Of a stretch of DNA of 64,000 bases, positions 21,582-64,000 are shown piece after piece. How positions within the stretch are numbered: position 1 is the stretch's first letter; the number at the start of each line of letters is the position of its first letter. The stretch comes from Octopus vulgaris (Eukaryota), in assembly GCA_951406725.2 (NCBI GenBank), contig OX597821.1, positions 45,074,001-45,138,000 of the forward strand, written 5' to 3'. Under the pieces are notes generated by a model that ran no database searches, had not been told where the DNA came from, and worked only from the letters and a program-made list of their open reading frames with translations. The position numbers were made by a program, and so were the translations under genes.

Positions 21582-21790
21582 CAAGGTGGTGAACTAGCGG
21601 AATATTTAACATGTTGGGAAAATGCTAAGCGGCATTTCTTCCGGCTTTGTGTTCAGAGTTCAAATTTCGCTGAGATCGACTTTGCCTTTGAGCACTGGGG
21701 TTGAGTACCAGTTGAGCACTGGGGTTGTTGTAATCGACTAGCCTCTCTTCCCAAATCTCAGGCCTTTGTGCCTATGATAGAATGGTTTAT
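21582..21790 (+). mobile_element. tRNA-derived SINE (family A, diverged)
   Basis: AAGGTGGTGAACTAGCGGAAT...GAGTTCAAATTTCGCTGAGATCGACTTTGCC. Confidence 0.75.
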
Positions 21791-22535
21791 TATTATTATT
21801 GAAGACGTCACAGTATCAAATATCGTGATGTGAATTGAAGCTATTGTGTTTACCGGGGATTTGTACAGTCTGTCAAGTCACAAGGACTTCAGACAGACAG
21901 TACTTTACGCAGTATGCGTGCAGTTCCAAGTAATGCCGATTTTTGCAATACACCTAAATTGTAGGGTATTTCTAAAGTTTCCAGAAGTTTATTGCGGTTG
22001 CATGGTATTGAACCCAATACTCCGATGACTACAGGGAAGCATTTATGCTTGATTCTCGAAGCTGCCATATCTTGGCGATCTCAATTCTTAGGTCTCCATA
22101 TTTATCCATCTTTTATCTTTCTTTCATGATGATATATTGATCTCCTGGCCACGTCGGTTGTTAGGCACACTTGTTTATCCCTCCTAAAGGTTACTATATT
22201 CGGCCGTCGATGCTCTAACACCTTGTCTGTTTAGAAGTCAAAATCCCAGAGGATCATTGCCTACCTCTTTTCGTCCATTACCTTTTCCGGTGTTGGTACC
22301 AAGCACCCTTTACCTCGTATCCATGCTTACGGCATTGTAGCCAGTGAAGGTTTTGGGCTACTTTGTTGTGTCTGCGCTTGTACTCTTTCTGCGCAAGAAT
22401 TTCGTAAGCACAAATAATGTGAGTCACGCTTTCGACCCTCTTCCCACACATTCTGCAGAGGTCCGTGGTACTTGTGTGGTATATATTATTTTTCGCTGAG
22501 TTGGTATTCAATGCCTGGTTCTGTGCTATTATTAT
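21790..22535 (-). mobile_element. R4/Dong-like non-LTR retrotransposon, 3' fragment (copy A)
   Basis: IIAQNQALNTNS...DLCRMCG...HIICAYEILAQKEYKRRHNKVA..LHW (CCHC knuckle and RH motif ahead of a restriction-like endonuclease). Ends in (TAA)n. Confidence 0.8.
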
Positions 22536-22561
22536 CCTCCTCCTCCTCCTCCTCCTCCTCC

Positions 22562-24905
<2,344 letters not shown>

Positions 24906-25257: not shown

Positions 25258-25770
25258 TGTAATTCAGGATGAGTGTTGGCTTCATCACTTTGAGCCAGAA
25301 ACAAAGAGACAATCCATGCAGTGGAAACATTTCCTCCTCACTTGCACTAAAGAAGGCTATGGTCGTTTCATCTGCTGGTTAGGTGATGGCCTCAACATTT
25401 TGGGATGCAGAAGGCATTGTGCTATTTACTATTTTCAAAAGGGTACACCATCAATGGCGAGAATTATGCCAAATTGCTGAGGCAGTTACGAAAGGTTATC
25501 AAAGCCAAACGCCCAGGAAAACTGACGAATGAAGTCTTGTTTTATGAGGACAATGCTCCAGCACACAAGTCTTTAGTTTCAATGGTTACTGTGGTGCGTG
25601 ACGTTGACTTTGGGCTGGTTGATCAGTCACCTTATTCTCCTTATTTGGCCTCACCTGACTCTCATCTGTTTCCCAACCTGAAAAAAGTCTTGGCTAAGAA
25701 CCAGTATCGCAGCGGCGATGATGTCATATCTGCTGTTACTAGCAGCAGTTACTTTTGAAGTCTTCTTTGA
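25258..25770 (+). pseudogene. Mariner transposase fragment
   Basis: DECWLHHFEPETKRQSMQWKH, KGYTINGENYAKLL, EDNAPAHKS, PYSPYLASPDSHLFPNLKK. Confidence 0.9.
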
Positions 25771-27455: not shown

Positions 27456-28464
27456 AACAAACAAACAAACAAACAGAAGCTTCAACATAAGCTCACAACT
27501 AGTAACAGTTGTGCAACCCTCACCTTCACCCCCACCCCACCCCACTACCACAATCATCACCCTATCACCACCACGTTCACCACTATGACGACAACGACGA
27601 CGACGACCACCACCACCACCAACAACAACAGCCGTTCAAGAATTTGGATCTGGAGATCTCCATTTCCAGCGACTTCGAGGGCCACCTCGCAGGGGTGTCG
27701 GGTGTCAACGAAGAGTCCTCGACTACAACAAGACGACCAAAGTTTTTTTTATTTTTTTCCCAAGGTCTGGAGTCTCCCGCTCCTAAGCCCTAGACCATCA
27801 CCTAATCACCCTTACCCGTCTTGTTGCTTAACAACAACAACAACAACAACAACAACAATAACAACAACAACAACAACCACCACCACCAACAACAACACAG
27901 CAACAGCAGCAACATCTACGACAGTAACAACAAAAACAATAGCAGAAACAGCGTCATCAACAGCGACGAGAACAACAACAACAACAGCAGCAACAACGTC
28001 TTGCACAAATATCATCATTAAAAATGTCTTTCCCTACACTGAAACCGCGTCAACAATTGGAAGGTCTAAATACCTAGGAAAGGCATACATCAAACAGATT
28101 TTTATAAGGAACCGTAAAACTCCAGTTTCTGAGTCGACCAGACGACAATGGTCAACATTGACAATGGCAACGTTAATTTCTAGAACTGTAAATTTGACCA
28201 AAATAAATTGTGTGATGGCAAACAGAATGGCTTTATTTACATTCCTTACTGATTGATAAACCAGGGTAGCTTTGGCAAGCTATATCTAAAACAATATAAA
28301 CTGCACGTATGATATCAGGCTTCACTGGCGACATCAAAACGTAGCCTGCTTACGCACACACACGTGCATATACATATACATGAAATGAATAAGCATGTAT
28401 GTATGTATGTATGTATGTATGTATGTATGTATGTATGTATGTGCGTATATATATATATATATAT

Positions 28465-28747
28465 CGAACACACATACACAAGGTGTGTGTTGATAGTTCG
28501 TGGATCGGCTGCGTTTTTAGGCGTAAGAGAATATACAAACACCTGAAAGTATCTCATAGGCAAGCGAGACAACTCACATCAGGTCATATAGTTATAGTTG
28601 GCGATATAGCTTGCAGCAGGCGTTTTTTGCTACGTGGCATTGATAAGTTACAACAACGACGAAACATCGATGTCTGTCGCTCCGAAAGGACTTGGTATGA
28701 ATTGTATCGCTTACCTATGAATTATTTTCAGGTGTTTTTAACACCAG

Positions 28748-28750
<3 letters not shown>
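28465..28750. mobile_element. Small fold-back hammerhead element between (TA)n tracts (arms ~28537-28585 / 28689-28737)
   Basis: AAACACCTGAAAGTATCTCATAGGCAAGCGAGACAACTCACATCAGGTC is an imperfect inverted copy of 28689-28737. Hammerhead lies between the arms. Confidence 0.7.
28634..28680 (+). ncRNA. Type I hammerhead ribozyme, U3-A8 core variant
   Basis: Stem I GUGGCA/UGUCGC (2 G.U pairs). UUGAUAA 28640-28646. Stem II GUU/GAC. GAAA 28661-28664, palindromic CAUCGAUG, GUC triplet (cut after 28674). Confidence 0.7.
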
Positions 28751-28803
<53 letters not shown>

Positions 28804-30287: not shown

Positions 30288-30880
30288 GGGGCGTCAATTC
30301 TGGAGGTCATTTGTATAAATTTTGAAAAAGGCACATAGCTCGTCAAAGAAAAGCTATATTTGAAAACAAATGGCTGCAAATAATCTTGAGAATCCTTTAA
30401 CGTATCTATTCAATGAATTCCTAGTTAGTATTAATGACTGCTTCAAAATGGGCCGGAAGCGTTGACAAGCCCAAATCAGACGATGTTTAGCAACTTGGGA
30501 CATAATGCTGATTATGAGGGGTCTGAGAAATTGTATGTTGTTATGGTTGTGTTGATTGACCTCTGTCTTGGCTATACCCCATATATAATAGACCAGTGGA
30601 TTGGGGTCTGGTGAGTTAGGAGGCCATGTGTCTGGGAGAACATGATCAGGGAGACTAGCATACATCCACGCTTGGGTTGTCCTAGCGTTATGAGATGACG
30701 CAGAGTCATGTTGGAACATGTACGATTTTACGTCGCAAATTCTGTTTATTCAGGCTTTCACAACTTACCCCCATACTCAACAACGCTTGCTGCAAGCTAT
30801 CTCGCCGACTATGACTATATGCTAAATGGTTTGAAAACTATCTGCTGGCATGTCCCAATGTCTCATGCGTCGGAAAAACT
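30283..30880 (-). mobile_element. Tc1/mariner transposase 3' remnant with terminal TIR
   Basis: FQHDSASSHNARTTQAW...WPPNSPDPNPLVYYIWG...ACQRFRP. TA|CAGGGGGCGTCAATT terminus. Confidence 0.85.
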
Positions 30881-31025
30881 TCAAATATGAATTAGAAGAA
30901 GCTCGAAGTATATAAACAAAATTGAACACACGTACACAAACACGACTCTCTTGTCACATTCGACATTAACTGATCCATTAACTGTGTGTGTGTGTGTGTG
31001 TAGTTTTGAAACAGTCGCATAAACA

Positions 31026-32745: not shown

Positions 32746-33537
32746 GTTAATAAATTACAGCAGTCAATTTACCGGTTAGAGAACATTTTTTTATTATAAT
32801 ATTATTTAAAATTGAATAAGGGTAGAAATTGATATTAATCAATTAAAACCAGTGGCCTAGCATATTAGAAAAATCCGAAGATTAAAATATTTTTTACATA
32901 CAAAATTTAAAGGACTGACCACTAAAAGTGGACAGTCAATATGTTAGATATAGACGTCAAAATCGCTATTAGCATAGTGATCAGTCCTTTAAATTTTGTA
33001 TGTAGAAAATATTTTAATCTTCGGATTTTTTTAATATGCTAGGCCACTGGTTTTAATTGATTAATATCAATTTCTACCCTTATTTAATTTTAAATAATAA
33101 TAAAAAAATGTTCTCTAACCGGTAAATTGACTGCTGTAATTTATTAACTGCAGAGTAGATTTCCGATCTCAGCGCGCCAAAGTGAAGGCATTTGAATGAT
33201 ACACATAAATATAATTTGTTGAACTATATGCGTGCGGGATTTCGGTCAAGCATTCTATATCTAGTTCTGGAAATTGTATTTGTAAACGACAGACTATGCT
33301 GATGATCTTGCAGATGCTCGCGTATACATATACGTGAATATTAACAAGTGAAACTAATTAGTACATAGGTAATCGTTTTTTGTTTCGTATATTTTCATTT
33401 GTCTTGCTTATTTTTTACACTTTGGTTTTTTGCTGAGTTTTTTCTTGAGAACACATTCTTCGTGGAAAATAACGATTTTGACGTCTATATCTAGCATATT
33501 GACTGTTCACTTTTAGTGGTCAGTCCTTTAAATTTTG

Positions 33538-33540
<3 letters not shown>
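32746..33540. mobile_element. Retrozyme-like element, family 3: inverted arm 32746-32965 plus a slightly over-unit-length ~539-nt monomer 32975-33540
   Basis: TAGTG(A/G)TCAGTCCTTTAAATTTTGTAT at 32975 and 33514. The inverted arm reads across that junction. One hammerhead, no ORF, ends in (TA)n. Confidence 0.8.
33294..33368 (+). ncRNA. Type I hammerhead ribozyme, canonical core
   Basis: Stem I CUAUG/CAUAG. CUGAUGA 33299-33305. Stem II (U)CUUG/CAAG(U). GAAA 33350-33353, palindromic CUAAUUAG, GUA (cut after 33363). Confidence 0.85.
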
Positions 33541-33610
<70 letters not shown>

Positions 33611-33616
33611 GCGCGT

Positions 33617-33900
33617 GTGTACTGTCACACCATCTGGTGGCATTACAAGACACTAAACGGGCATGACTTCAAAGAAACCTACACACAACGTTTGCACTCC
33701 TTCAGGTGCAGGAAAAGGGAAAACTTCACATCTCTGTTCCGTTTTCTCGAAAGGCTTCGTGACCATCGGAACGATTTCCCTAGCATCGAATGGAGTATCA
33801 TTGACAGGGCTACTCCTTATTCGCTTGGAATCGCAATTGTCAACTCTACCTCCTCGAATAACTACACATACTCTACCAACCTTACTATTTCCACTTGAGG
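33617..33900 (+). pseudogene. Penelope-like GIY-YIG endonuclease C-terminal remnant
   Basis: FKETYTQRLHSFR...TSLFRFLERLRD...SIEWSIIDRATPYS resembles the PLE pattern FK.RY..H..SFR...T.LS...LK....I.WSI...A.PY. Confidence 0.7.
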
Positions 33901-47700: not shown

Positions 47701-49030
47701 ACTTATAATTTAGAGTGTGTTTTCATTCTAAGCTATTAAGTTGACTTCTAAAATTCATGTTTTTTGTGGAACGTTAACATTTTGTACCAGTGTCCTACAG
47801 ATATGTGCGTGGCAAGTAAATTCCAACTACTTGAAAGACTCAGTGAAAGAACAGAAATACAGATCATAAAGAGAAAAAATAAGAAAGTGACATTAATACA
47901 GGTCAAACAGAAATCAGCATATAGAAACAATAGAATTTGGAATTGTTTAAATTCTTATGCACAAATGAAATTATTTATAACCTCGTAAATAATGAAGAGT
48001 AATTTCAATGTAAAATTAACAGTGATAGTTAATAAGGAGTCGAAGAAACTTCAGCCAAAGATAATAAGAAACTCTACAAAGTTTCTCCTTCTTGAAAAAT
48101 CTGAGATTTGAAACCAAATTAATGATGCAACAGAAGGATTAATACTGGAGTTTAATATAATTGAAAAGGTTCATTGAATATCGACTTATTGATTTCTTAT
48201 GTCCAATCACACGAATAATTGTTACAAAGAAAAGATTAATAATTGATCTGCAGAGGGATTGATTCCTCTAAATATAATCAATAGATTATATTATATGTAG
48301 ATTAGTGAAGACAGCTGACCTATATGTCGGTGACCGATGAGCTGACCTCAAGTAAAAACAAATCAAATCTGGACTAGGAAATGTAATTTTATTTTTTGTG
48401 ACTGAGACTGTAGTGGAAGAACAGTACATATGACCTTTAGTAGTGCATCATCCAGGGCTTGTGGGAAGGAGAGAGGAAGTTATACTTGAAACAATGAGGA
48501 CTCGGTTAACGACACCTAGGGGTCAGGTGGTGTTGTTGTTAAATATAGCAAGAGATTAAGTGTATCCCCTGAGGACAGAAGCGATCCCTACATACAGAAT
48601 TTTTTGGGTGACTTTCAGTGATTTCAGGGAAATATCCTTGTTTTTTTTTTCTAGTAGATTGAATGATACTACGTAAGGGCCCTTTCATTGTTTTGTCAAA
48701 TGACACAAAGGAATTGTTCACAAAACAGAGTTAGAGATGATCAGTGTATATAAAAATAGAAGGAACGTAGTAACGCTGATTAATGAATATCGATAATATG
48801 GCTGAACCCAAATAATTCAGAGGAACGTTTCGCATGCTAAATATACATACAATAAAATATGACAAGAGTGAGGTGAAGAACTTATATTAAATGAAATTAT
48901 TCTTGAAATTAGAAGACAAAAACAACAAATAGCAGCATCAGTAGTTTCTCTCAATTTTTAAATAAAATAATCTCTTAACAGTTGTAACTTACTTTCCCAA
49001 CTGTCGAAGCATAGCTATAATATATATATG

Positions 49031-49188
<158 letters not shown>

Positions 49189-49199
49189 ATGTGTGTATA

Positions 49200-50100
49200 T
49201 GTTATTTAGAGATAGTAGTCCCCACCATCACACCATATAAAAGAATTTTGATTTAATACTTACTACTCATTTCTCTGCTACACGTGTTTCTTGAGGTTCT
49301 TTTACGGTTCCTTAATCACGCAGTGTTTTACAGGAACCTTTCTTAAAATGTAACCCCAATCATCAGGCCTCTAAATAACTTTATCATAGTTCGATACCAA
49401 ATATTATATTTTAATTTTAACAGATAAGTATGTGTAAATAGGTTACGTTACTCTTAAGTTATTAAGCTCTAATTTTTACTTTGTAAATTTTTAAATTTTA
49501 TCATTTGTAAATTTTCTTTCTGCATTTTGTCATTCGTACTTTTGTATGTCCACTTAGTTTTTTATTCGAATATATTTATTTGTCATTGCTTTCATTATTA
49601 TATCATCACAAGTATATATTTTATTTTTATTTTTACCCCTACATATTATTAATTTTATATGAATGTTTACAGACATAGGTTACGTGAGAATTTAGTTTTT
49701 GTAAATTTCTTATTTTCTATTTTTTATTTTTATTAACATAATTTGAATTAAATTATGGCTTGCACAGTAAGGTCCGGCGAACCTATTTACGCATACGCAT
49801 ACTTATCTATTAAAATTAAAATATAGTATTTGGTATCGAACTATGATAAAGTTATTTAGAGACCTGATGTTTGGGGTTACATTTTAAGAAAGGTTCCTGT
49901 AAAACACTGCATGCTTAAGGAACTGTAATAGAACCCCAAGAAACACGTGTAGCAGAGAAATGAGTTGTAAGTATTAAATTAAAATTCTTTTATATGGTGT
50001 GATGATGGAGACTACTATCTCTAAAAAACATATATATTTCCTCATGGAGAATAATTTGAACCCCTGTGATACCGGAATTTTTATTCCCTAATAAATAAAA
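49200..50100. mobile_element. Fold-back hammerhead element, family 5 (arms ~49200-49444 / 49780-50030)
   Basis: ~245-bp inverted arms, ~335-bp spacer, tail, long (TA)n on both sides. Confidence 0.85.
49267..49378 (-). ncRNA. Type I hammerhead ribozyme with long stem II
   Basis: Minus strand GC, CUGAUGA (49366-49360), UUGGGGUU...AACCUCAA, GAAA, CACGUG, UA, GC. Stem I is interrupted by an internal loop. The right-arm copy (~49852-49962) has CUGAUGU. Confidence 0.7.
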
Positions 50101-50125
50101 TAAAATATATATATATATATAATAT

Positions 50126-50208
<83 letters not shown>

Positions 50209-50346
50209 TATATTAACATACATATATATATATCTATATCTATATATATAAATATATGTTCCTCTGAAGTATTTGCTTTCAACCATATTATCGATATTCA
50301 TTAATCAGCGTTTTGTCATTTGACAAAATAATGAAGGAGCCTTTAC

Positions 50347-51580: not shown

Positions 51581-51628
51581 ATTTTTGATAAGGTTCGTTT
51601 TTTCAAGAAGAACCGAAACATGTAAAAT
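51581..51628 (+). ncRNA. Type I hammerhead ribozyme, U3-A8 core variant
   Basis: Stem I AUUU/AAAU. UUGAUAA 51585-51591. Stem II GGUUC/GAACC. GAAA 51615-51618, palindromic CAUG, GUA (cut after 51624). Downstream ATTTTCAAAC(C)TTCTTT is shared with the 32.1 kb element. Confidence 0.7.
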
Positions 51629-53289: not shown

Positions 53290-54230
53290 AAAATTCACTA
53301 AACGCCAGAACGTAAGCGAGCAAGACAAACGGAAAGATACAAAATAAAATGATTAATCACAAACCCGGTTTCATTGTTACCACTTACGTAATGCTTATGT
53401 AAATGTCCGCAATTCATCAGTGTGATCGTCATTGCAAAATATAAATTGAAGAACTATACACGAGACGTCCGCATGAGATTGAACATGCATATAGTTCTAC
53501 CAATTACATTTGGGATTTATTTCAAAAATCTTCGTTTTGGCGCGCCAAAATGTGGGAAAAGATTCTGCAGAAAATAATTCTCTGCGGAGAATTTTGCCGG
53601 TTTGAGAACATGGTTATTTAAATTTAAATAATAAGGGTGAGAAATTGAATATTAATTTGATTAATATCAATTTAAAGCCAGTGACCTAGCAGACTGAAAA
53701 ATCTGAAGATTCAGAAAAATTATATTACATACATATAAGGGGGATGACCACAAAGTGGACGTCCATTATACTAGAGTTAGACCCCATATGGTCTGACCAC
53801 TAAGAAAAGATTGTTCTCAAGAATATTCAGCAAACGCCAGAACGTAAGCGAGCAAGGCAAATGAATATAAAGATTAATCACAAACCCGGTTTCATTGTTA
53901 CTACTTACGTAAATGTCCGCAATTAATCTTTAATTAATCTTTATATTTTGTATCTTTATATGTTTTATCTTTATATTCATTTGTCTTGTTCGCTTACGTT
54001 CTGGTGTTTGCTGAATTTTCTTGAGAACAATCTTTGGTGTTCTGGTGTTCTTGAGAACAATCTTTTCTTAATGGTCAGACCATATTGGGTCTACTTCTAG
54101 CATAATGGATGTCTACTTAGTGGTCATCCCTCTTATATGTATGTAATATAATTTTTCTAAATCTTCAGATTTTTCAATATGCTAGGCCACTGGTTTTAAA
54201 TTGATATTAAATTAATATTCAATTTTTCAC

Positions 54231-54235
<5 letters not shown>
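53290..54235. mobile_element. Retrozyme-like element, family 3: ~1.2 tandem monomers (period 532) on the minus strand plus an inverted arm ~53926-54235
   Basis: AAACGCCAGAACGTAAGCGAGCAAG at 53300 and 53832. Shares ATATGCTAGGCCACTGGTTTTAA, GCGCGCCAAA and TTTCTTGAGAACA with 32746-33540. Ends in (TA)n. Confidence 0.85.
53356..53426 (-). ncRNA. Type I hammerhead ribozyme, canonical core
   Basis: Minus strand AUCACA, CUGAUGA (53420-53414), AUUG...CAAU, GAAA, CCGG, GUU, UGUGAU. Perfect 6-bp stem I. The second tandem copy (~53877-53924) is truncated at the core. Confidence 0.85.
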
Positions 54236-54322
<87 letters not shown>

Positions 54323-63345: not shown

Positions 63346-63654
63346 TTTCCTGCTTAGTACTCATTTCAGACCCCCAATTTATCTTTTAACTTTTCATTCT
63401 TTTCTTTCCTTCTAACTTCCTTCCCTCTACCCCATCTCTCTATCCTTCTCCTGAGCCTCCTCATTGTACCTTTGGAACACAAGCACCACTATTTTCTTCC
63501 CTTTTTTGTTAGTTTTTGTCCCACATTTTGAAATACTTGCAATTTGTATTTTTACTGCTTATTTTAGCTCTGCTTGATACATTTCCAAAATTAAACATTT
63601 TAATATGCAAAATATACTTCACATTATTATATATACTATGCATTAATGCAAAAA

Positions 63655-64000
63655 ATATTGTGTTTATTGGCTATCTTCAAAATGATCACACCATCAATGG
63701 GAAATTTCAATACCAACTTCCGAAGGCAGTTATGAAAGGCTATCAAGACCAAACACCCAGAAAAACTGATAAATGGGGTCTTGTTTCATTAGGACAATGC
63801 TTCAGCACATAAGTCCTTGGTTTCAATGGCTGCTGTATGTGACTGGCTTTGAAATGGTTGATCATGCTCCCTATGTTAGTGATTTGGTTCCTTCTGGTTA
63901 TCATCTGTTTCCCAACATAGAAAAACACTCAGCTGAGCACCAATTTCACTATGATGAGAACATCTTATCTGTTGTTGATGACTATTTTGATCAACAGAAA
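63655..64000 (+). pseudogene. Mariner transposase fragment
   Basis: FIGYLQNDHTING, DNASAHKSLVSMAAV, DLVPSGYHLFPN. Homologous to 25400-25740. Confidence 0.8.

Follow-up and report, generated by a model that had tools for sequence, protein, structure and literature searches.

A type I hammerhead with a U3-A8 core in an abundant repeat family: a likely truncated, inverted retrozyme-type insertion in Octopus vulgaris

The window analysed here (64,000 nucleotides of Octopus vulgaris DNA, contig OX597821.1, positions 45,074,001 to 45,138,000) carries a type I hammerhead ribozyme motif with a U3-A8 pair in its core, which belongs to an abundant repeat family. Around it, a retrozyme-type repeat with an estimated monomer of about 350 nt has likely left an old insertion, which is both truncated and inverted and was probably copied in by a Penelope-like reverse transcriptase-endonuclease. 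We assign this reading a probability of roughly 70%.

The hammerhead motif and its repeat family

The stems, the UUGAUAA core, the GAAA, the palindrome and the GUC described in the first-pass annotation are all present in the sequence, both by direct reading and by script (Table 1). The motif has the strand order of type I hammerheads (Rfam clan CL00010) and three helices, with G10.1-C11.1, a Watson-Crick 3-8 pair, G12 A13 A14, A15.1-U16.1 and an NUH triplet. Alignment with the Rfam model Hammerhead_HH9 also shows the contact motifs of loop 1 and loop 2. The position of the GUC predicts a 5'-OH product starting at 28675. In its full canonical form the ribozyme also includes an outer helix I, which is broken in this copy.

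Table 1. Features of the hammerhead locus and of a second fragment of the repeat (window coordinates)
Feature	Position	Strand	Remark
Left (TA)n tract, preceded by (ATGT)n	28446..28464		likely insertion target
Inverted 3' extension ('tail') of the repeat, at the left end only	28465..28535	-	high-copy in 4/4 runs
Left arm, inverted repeat of ribozyme-downstream sequence	28534..28585	-	81% to right arm
5'-truncated start of forward copy, ribozyme-upstream	28585..28630	+	88% over 43 nt to 30821-30779
Full canonical type I hammerhead	28621..28689	+	outer helix I and UAC internal loop 28631-28633; from HH9 alignment and majority-letter fold
Hammerhead ribozyme motif	28634..28680	+	helix I, core, helix II, GAAA, palindromic helix III, GUC; direct reading and script
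Helix I	28634-28639 / 28675-28680	+	6 bp, two pairs being G.U
Core UUGAUAA	28640..28646	+	U3 = 28640, A8 = 28645; position 7 = 28644, variable in relatives
Helix II	28647-28649 / 28658-28660	+	3 bp, with G10.1-C11.1
GAAA	28661-28664	+	direct reading
Perfect 10-nt palindrome	28664..28673	+	predicted to be helix III, shared by both ribozymes of a double hammerhead; -12.9 kcal/mol as a duplex
GUC	28672-28674	+	direct reading
Predicted cleavage site	28674..28675	+	3' of C17; sequence and established hammerhead numbering
Right arm and right end of forward copy	28689..28750	+	arm 28689-28740; more diverged from relatives than the left arm
Right (TA)25 tract	28751..28800		direct reading
Second fragment of the repeat, no hammerhead	30779..30939	-	tail-end match 30939-30924, 101-nt linker, 28585-type segment

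A motif descriptor that permits any Watson-Crick 3-8 pair found 28634-28680 as its sole site within the window; the canonical-core hammerhead pattern had no match in the window, and descriptor searches of it detected no second hammerhead of the same repeat family. Under loose settings the descriptor matched 0.025 times per window over 200 dinucleotide shuffles. A short pattern combining U3-A8 with the palindrome gave no match in metagenome contigs and none in viral contigs. Rfam returned nothing at gathering level across the window. A search confined to 28590-28720 gave a single match, Hammerhead_HH9, at 21.7 bits against a gathering cut-off of 52 (E 0.0017), and its alignment takes in the core together with two loop motifs, UAC in the internal loop of helix I and CAA-AA in loop II. 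Since this score is under the cut-off, the motif is not filed under RF02275. MicroRNA matches in the Rfam search were rejected as microsatellite artefacts. A score so far under the cut-off, and the fact that the hammerhead is not the lowest-energy fold, would suit a merely accidental resemblance to a hammerhead; however, the descriptor set to the helix lengths of this motif matched none of the 200 dinucleotide shuffles, and the variation among relatives avoids the core and preserves the helices, which makes the chance of such an accident negligible.

The family was surveyed by aligning contigs of four public sequencing runs to the unit with a likeness cut-off of 80%; the runs stem from at most three samples and two studies, and the best of them may be the source sample of the window. 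The 286-bp unit attracted 274, 268, 268 and 340 contigs in the four runs, and the 59-nt ribozyme alone 93, 101, 106 and 132. The repeat is plainly abundant, contig counts not being copy numbers. Among the 40 variants listed of 100, none lies at 28640 (U3) or 28645 (A8). Every listed variant reaches at least 18% of depth in some run (27 computed, 13 higher ones judged by eye), and if variants are ranked by share, as appears to be the case, C3 and G8 should each lie below about 18%. The only core position varying among the listed variants is position 7, with 10%–25% of depth. Position 7 of the hammerhead is free. The changes 28649 T>C (81%–84% of depth) and 28657 C>T (76%–84%) produce a helix II of 4 bp with a 6-nt loop in most relatives; the 3-bp stem II reported at first is therefore correct for this copy but not for the family, in which 4 bp are typical and 3 bp represent a worn form.

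At helix positions, 11 of 11 listed variants pair in the standard way with the partner letter, although those of the outer helix are partly circular because that helix was read from majority letters, and the variant table is per column, so that no double-sided compensatory change is visible in it. Four distinct 5' strands of helix I occur among the contig groups, all of them aligning from or through U3 (with loose ends). The lack of a listed variant at U3 or A8, while position 7 and helix letters vary, indicates a trait of the family rather than decay. The data thus support a U3-A8 pair carried family-wide, and the proposal that the 3-8 pair is compensated rather than a decayed core stands. 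The contrary case, canonical relatives around an isolated double transition, was looked for among the same 40 of 100 variants and was not seen. Two independent transitions in one copy of a canonical C3-G8 family would be in keeping with the nature of the changes, transitions making up 7 of the 10 differences between the two arms and thus their most frequent class, and with the fact that the variants listed are 40 of 100. Against this, letters private to the present copy (e.g., at 28625, 28630, 28649 and 28657) are contradicted at 76%–97% of depth and none of them is at 28640 or 28645, so we consider this explanation hardly credible. With 40 of 100 variants listed and a cut-off of 80% that favours look-alikes, canonical-core subfamilies may exist.

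A separate observation concerns the 33-nt 3' half of the ribozyme (28653-28685), which is tandemly repeated in one contig per run in all four runs.

Layout of the insertion and size of the monomer

The inverted arms, first described as about 50 bp, measure 52 nt, and the unit of about 285 bp between (TA)n tracts corresponds to 28465-28750, with (TA)n at both ends. What did not survive was the description of this unit as a tiny fold-back element. The arms do not lie at the termini of the unit, the left one starting 69 nt from the border. Relatives diverge from the locus before 28585 in 15–19 contigs per run, before 28537 in 33–40 and behind 28535 in 15–25, in each case with loose ends, and the sequence that they carry upstream of 28585 is also found in the window at 30850-30822 on the minus strand. 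Joints connect 28465-28490 to the left arm in several contigs, and approximately 21–22 nt present in other copies are absent here at 28535-28537. No listed contig in any of the four runs spans the whole 286-bp unit, which we did not count as evidence. As relatives continue differently at 28535, 28537 and 28585, the 286-bp unit is not common to the family. A MITE or fold-back DNA transposon, mobile as a unit of 286 bp and with a captured hammerhead inside, would accommodate the 52-nt inverted arms, the strong fold of the unit (z -5.3) and the TA-rich flanks, but it is largely refuted by the divergence of other copies at these three positions; the internal position of the arms, and the finding that the arm is ordinary ribozyme-downstream sequence in relatives, also make it very improbable.

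Followed on the minus strand from 28585 to 28465, the left part of the locus is ribozyme-downstream sequence, comprising the arm, a shortened stretch and then a 71-nt extension, at the end of which an AC-rich hairpin may form (28467-28491, -7.6 kcal/mol). The locus reads as a forward (28585-28750) and an inverted (28585-28465) 5'-truncated copy placed head to head, i.e., an inverted 5'-truncated insertion. Both 3' ends of these copies abut (TA)n, one of them being about 80 nt longer. Compared with the family majority, 2 of 121 positions are different in the inverted half, against 12 of 166 in the forward half (p 0.048 among the listed variants, contigs fitting both arms having been placed on the better arm); this gap is a weak hint that the halves may have had different templates.

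Insertions of Penelope-like elements are reported to consist of an inverted 5'-truncated copy with a tail of 30–40 bp at one end and to target microsatellites (Craig et al. 2021, PMC8557442). The locus displays the same footprint of head-to-head truncated copies, one-end extension and (TA)n target, differing in a tail that is longer than published (about 80 nt versus 30–40 nt). A Penelope-like protein has been described to cut and extend both strands of AT-rich DNA, with reverse transcription starting at two internal sites in an AC-rich stem-loop and with no need for hammerhead cleavage when insertion takes place in vitro (Frangieh et al. 2024, PMC11167929). The AC-rich hairpin at the tail end of our locus is similar to this stem-loop and, if the analogy can be transferred, the use of two start sites would explain the one-sided tail.

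The second fragment of the repeat, at 30779-30939, stops just short of the ribozyme. It contains, in the correct orientation, a match to the tail end (30924-30939) that precedes the 28585-type segment by 101 nt; the match is 16 nt long, is the sole other site within one mismatch in the window and has a BLAST E value of 0.62. From this single 16-nt match a monomer of about 347 nt can be estimated, by adding up parts of two worn copies and a gap of 11 nt. Additionally, a tandem-type joint leading from the tail end at 28465 into another hammerhead at 28631 occurs in one contig per run in all four runs; no full monomer or tandem array is present in the window or in the listed contigs. The pieced monomer, itself a chimera of worn copies, has no advantage in folding over shuffled sequence (z -0.17, with 41 of 100 shuffles doing as well). 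The frames over both fragments are microsatellite-spanning or short, the full element lying beyond the fragments of the window. A DDE-type transposase remnant (30357-30749, weak Pfam DDE_3 match) adjoins the 30779-30939 fragment.

Relation to retrozymes and Penelope-like elements

Canonical type I hammerheads have been described in metazoan non-LTR retrozymes of 170–400 nt, with repeats of 350–390 bp in mussel and 330/350 bp in axolotl and with highly self-paired RNAs (Cervera and de la Peña 2020, PMC7229834). The present family has a canonical type I hammerhead in a high-copy repeat, which is one mark of a retrozyme, and it resembles these retrozymes in the loop 1/loop 2 motifs, in a weak palindromic helix III, in its abundance and dispersal without a visible coding frame and in an estimated size of about 350 nt. 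It differs in several respects. Retrozymes form tandem arrays with linear and circular RNA, whereas the locus is an inverted truncated insertion and the contigs surveyed come from runs not recorded as RNA. The pieced monomer, unlike retrozyme RNAs, shows no strong self-pairing. A U3-A8 core is not mentioned for retrozymes in the accessible text of PMC7229834 or of a recent preprint (Li et al., bioRxiv 10.64898/2026.07.22.740005). The latter derives retrozyme repeats from the ends of Penelope-like elements on phylogenetic arguments and reports cleavage in one of nine genomic dimers tested.

The first-pass annotation implied that the U3-A8 core is new, which is unsupported because natural cases have already been published. 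According to the available text of PMC3088659 (Perreault et al. 2011), several natural hammerheads carry U3-A8 as a covariation of C3-G8, and swaps of this kind had earlier been shown to be active in vitro; this text does not tie its U3-A8 hammerheads to the present repeat or host. In Schistosoma mansoni, about 1300 U3-A8 copies are tied to the Penelope-like elements Cercyon, and hammerhead motifs are reported 100–700 bp apart on opposite strands (Cervera and de la Peña 2014, PMC4209133). The present family is similar to the minimal hammerheads of Cercyon in its family-wide U3-A8 pair, its palindromic 15.2-16.2 and its mostly single, dispersed motifs. However, Cercyon hammerheads have a helix II of 7–8 bp, a helix I of 4–5 bp and a bulge before helix II, while in the present family helix II has 4 bp, helix I has 6 bp plus an extension and there is no bulge, which sets it apart from the Cercyon type. 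In a search mainly of open-access texts, no paper came up that describes this family or a retrozyme hammerhead of canonical type with U3-A8, although supplements may list it.

The repeat could alternatively be the pLTR of an autonomous Penelope-like element, the locus then being the severely 5'-truncated inverted end of that element, inserted by the same mechanism. Penelope-like elements normally leave debris of this kind, inverted and truncated, lying in (TA)n and with a tail on one side (PMC8557442), U3-A8 was first tied to Penelope-like elements (PMC4209133) and relatives carry several different ribozyme-upstream sequences, all of which would agree with such an origin. We nevertheless regard it as rather unlikely: the ribozyme is canonical, with a 6-bp helix I and its extension, a helix II of 4 bp and no bulge following A9, and differs in this from the minimal Penelope hammerheads; the tail end rejoins the upstream segment within 101 nt in the 30779-30939 fragment; and no coding frame of at least 45 aa, as judged by eye, adjoins either fragment. 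Autonomous Penelope-like elements encode a reverse transcriptase with a GIY-YIG endonuclease, and no such frame adjoins either fragment within the window. Pfam and Atlas searches confirmed no Penelope-like protein in the window.

The preferred reading, a retrozyme-type insertion, suggests the following course of events. It starts from a family in which U3 and A8 are kept while position 7 and helix letters vary, and in which most relatives have the canonical animal type I architecture. By comparison with known families, tandem family copies would be transcribed; the helix III of a monomer being too weak, two ribozymes would pair via the 10-nt palindrome and cut after the GUC, releasing a unit-length RNA that may circularise. 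A Penelope-like enzyme would then nick both strands of a (TA)n tract and prime cDNA at either end, the two start points being separated by about 80 nt of the RNA. The two cDNAs would end early and be joined head to head at 28585. Two-ended priming, an early stop and this junction would together yield the inverted arms and the one-sided tail. The resulting copy at 28634-28680 is predicted to be inactive or weak.

This prediction draws on several lines. In most relatives helix II has 4 bp and helix I is longer, and the 28634-28680 copy has lost pairs in both; the assumption that this copy is intact was thus not borne out. ViennaRNA prefers pairing between its core and the palindrome (pair probability 0.98) and places this fold 8.3 kcal/mol below the hammerhead; the gap is 7.0 kcal/mol with the commonest family letters and 4.7 with a canonical core. 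Dimer-dependent cleavage is established for hammerheads with a palindromic helix III (PMC4209133, PMC7229834). When two copies are folded together, the canonical-core and position-7 variants have the double hammerhead as their best structure, which the majority version and the 28634-28680 copy do not; the best dimer of the majority version is only 0.1 kcal/mol below the double hammerhead of the position-7 variant, the models ignore tertiary contacts and the majority version may not exist as a haplotype. Because of the lost pairs of helix II and outer helix I, the core-palindrome misfold and the lack of a second family hammerhead in the window, the copy is probably inactive or weak and likely represents worn debris.

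The fold gaps also allow a bolder proposal, which we consider doubtful. U3-A8 might have spread in the family because U3, by pairing with the palindrome, locks the monomer harder than C3-G8 would and so reserves cutting for dimers. A Penelope-type enzyme acting as a dimer at the two sides of a single TA break might, in addition, have copied the two halves of the present insertion from two separate RNAs. The stronger lock with U3 emerges from the fold models as a side effect, on which selection may or may not act.

Genomic surroundings and significance

The window is rich in repeats and microsatellites. A second U3-A8 hammerhead-like motif, unrelated in sequence to the first, is located at 51581-51628 (+) within a stretch of about 275 bp flanked by (TA)n tracts. 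It has a 5-bp Watson-Crick helix II with G10.1-C11.1, GAAA, a 6-nt palindrome and a weak 4-bp A-U helix I, and is closer to the minimal Penelope type. Matches of this kind were absent from 150 order-3 Markov windows (with a post hoc descriptor) and from 100 shuffles; the motif has no Rfam hammerhead match and no further copy within the window. A frame at 33611-33895 (+), right after a (TA)n tract, might resemble the end of a Penelope-type endonuclease; it has no Pfam match, and its Atlas matches are all under 0.9. Two related AT-rich elements with nested inverted repeats, each ending at (TA)n, occupy 32750-33545 and 53290-54240, and descriptor searches found no hammerhead in either. Other remnants of mobile elements include a reverse transcriptase (23797-24624, minus strand; Pfam RVT_1, E 3e-15), adjoined by a direct duplication of about 750 bp (21787-23405), and mariner-type transposases at 25387-25755 (+) and 63646-63942 (Pfam Transposase_1, E 8e-5; 75% alike). 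Another fold-back arrangement in TA microsatellites is the inverted repeat at 49011-50243, which consists largely of (TA)n tracts and has arms of about 450 nt (86%) separated by about 350 nt.

The U3-A8 core itself is known and the locus is mostly ordinary. What it adds is a high-copy family with U3-A8 in a canonical, rather than minimal, animal type I hammerhead. Descriptors that require CUGANGA miss such families, as do the Rfam cut-offs, so that ribozyme repeats in animals are undercounted. The layout of the insertion is a further indication that Penelope-like enzymes move retrozyme-type repeats. If the lock proposed above were true, it would provide a selective reason for a core covariation hitherto treated as neutral.
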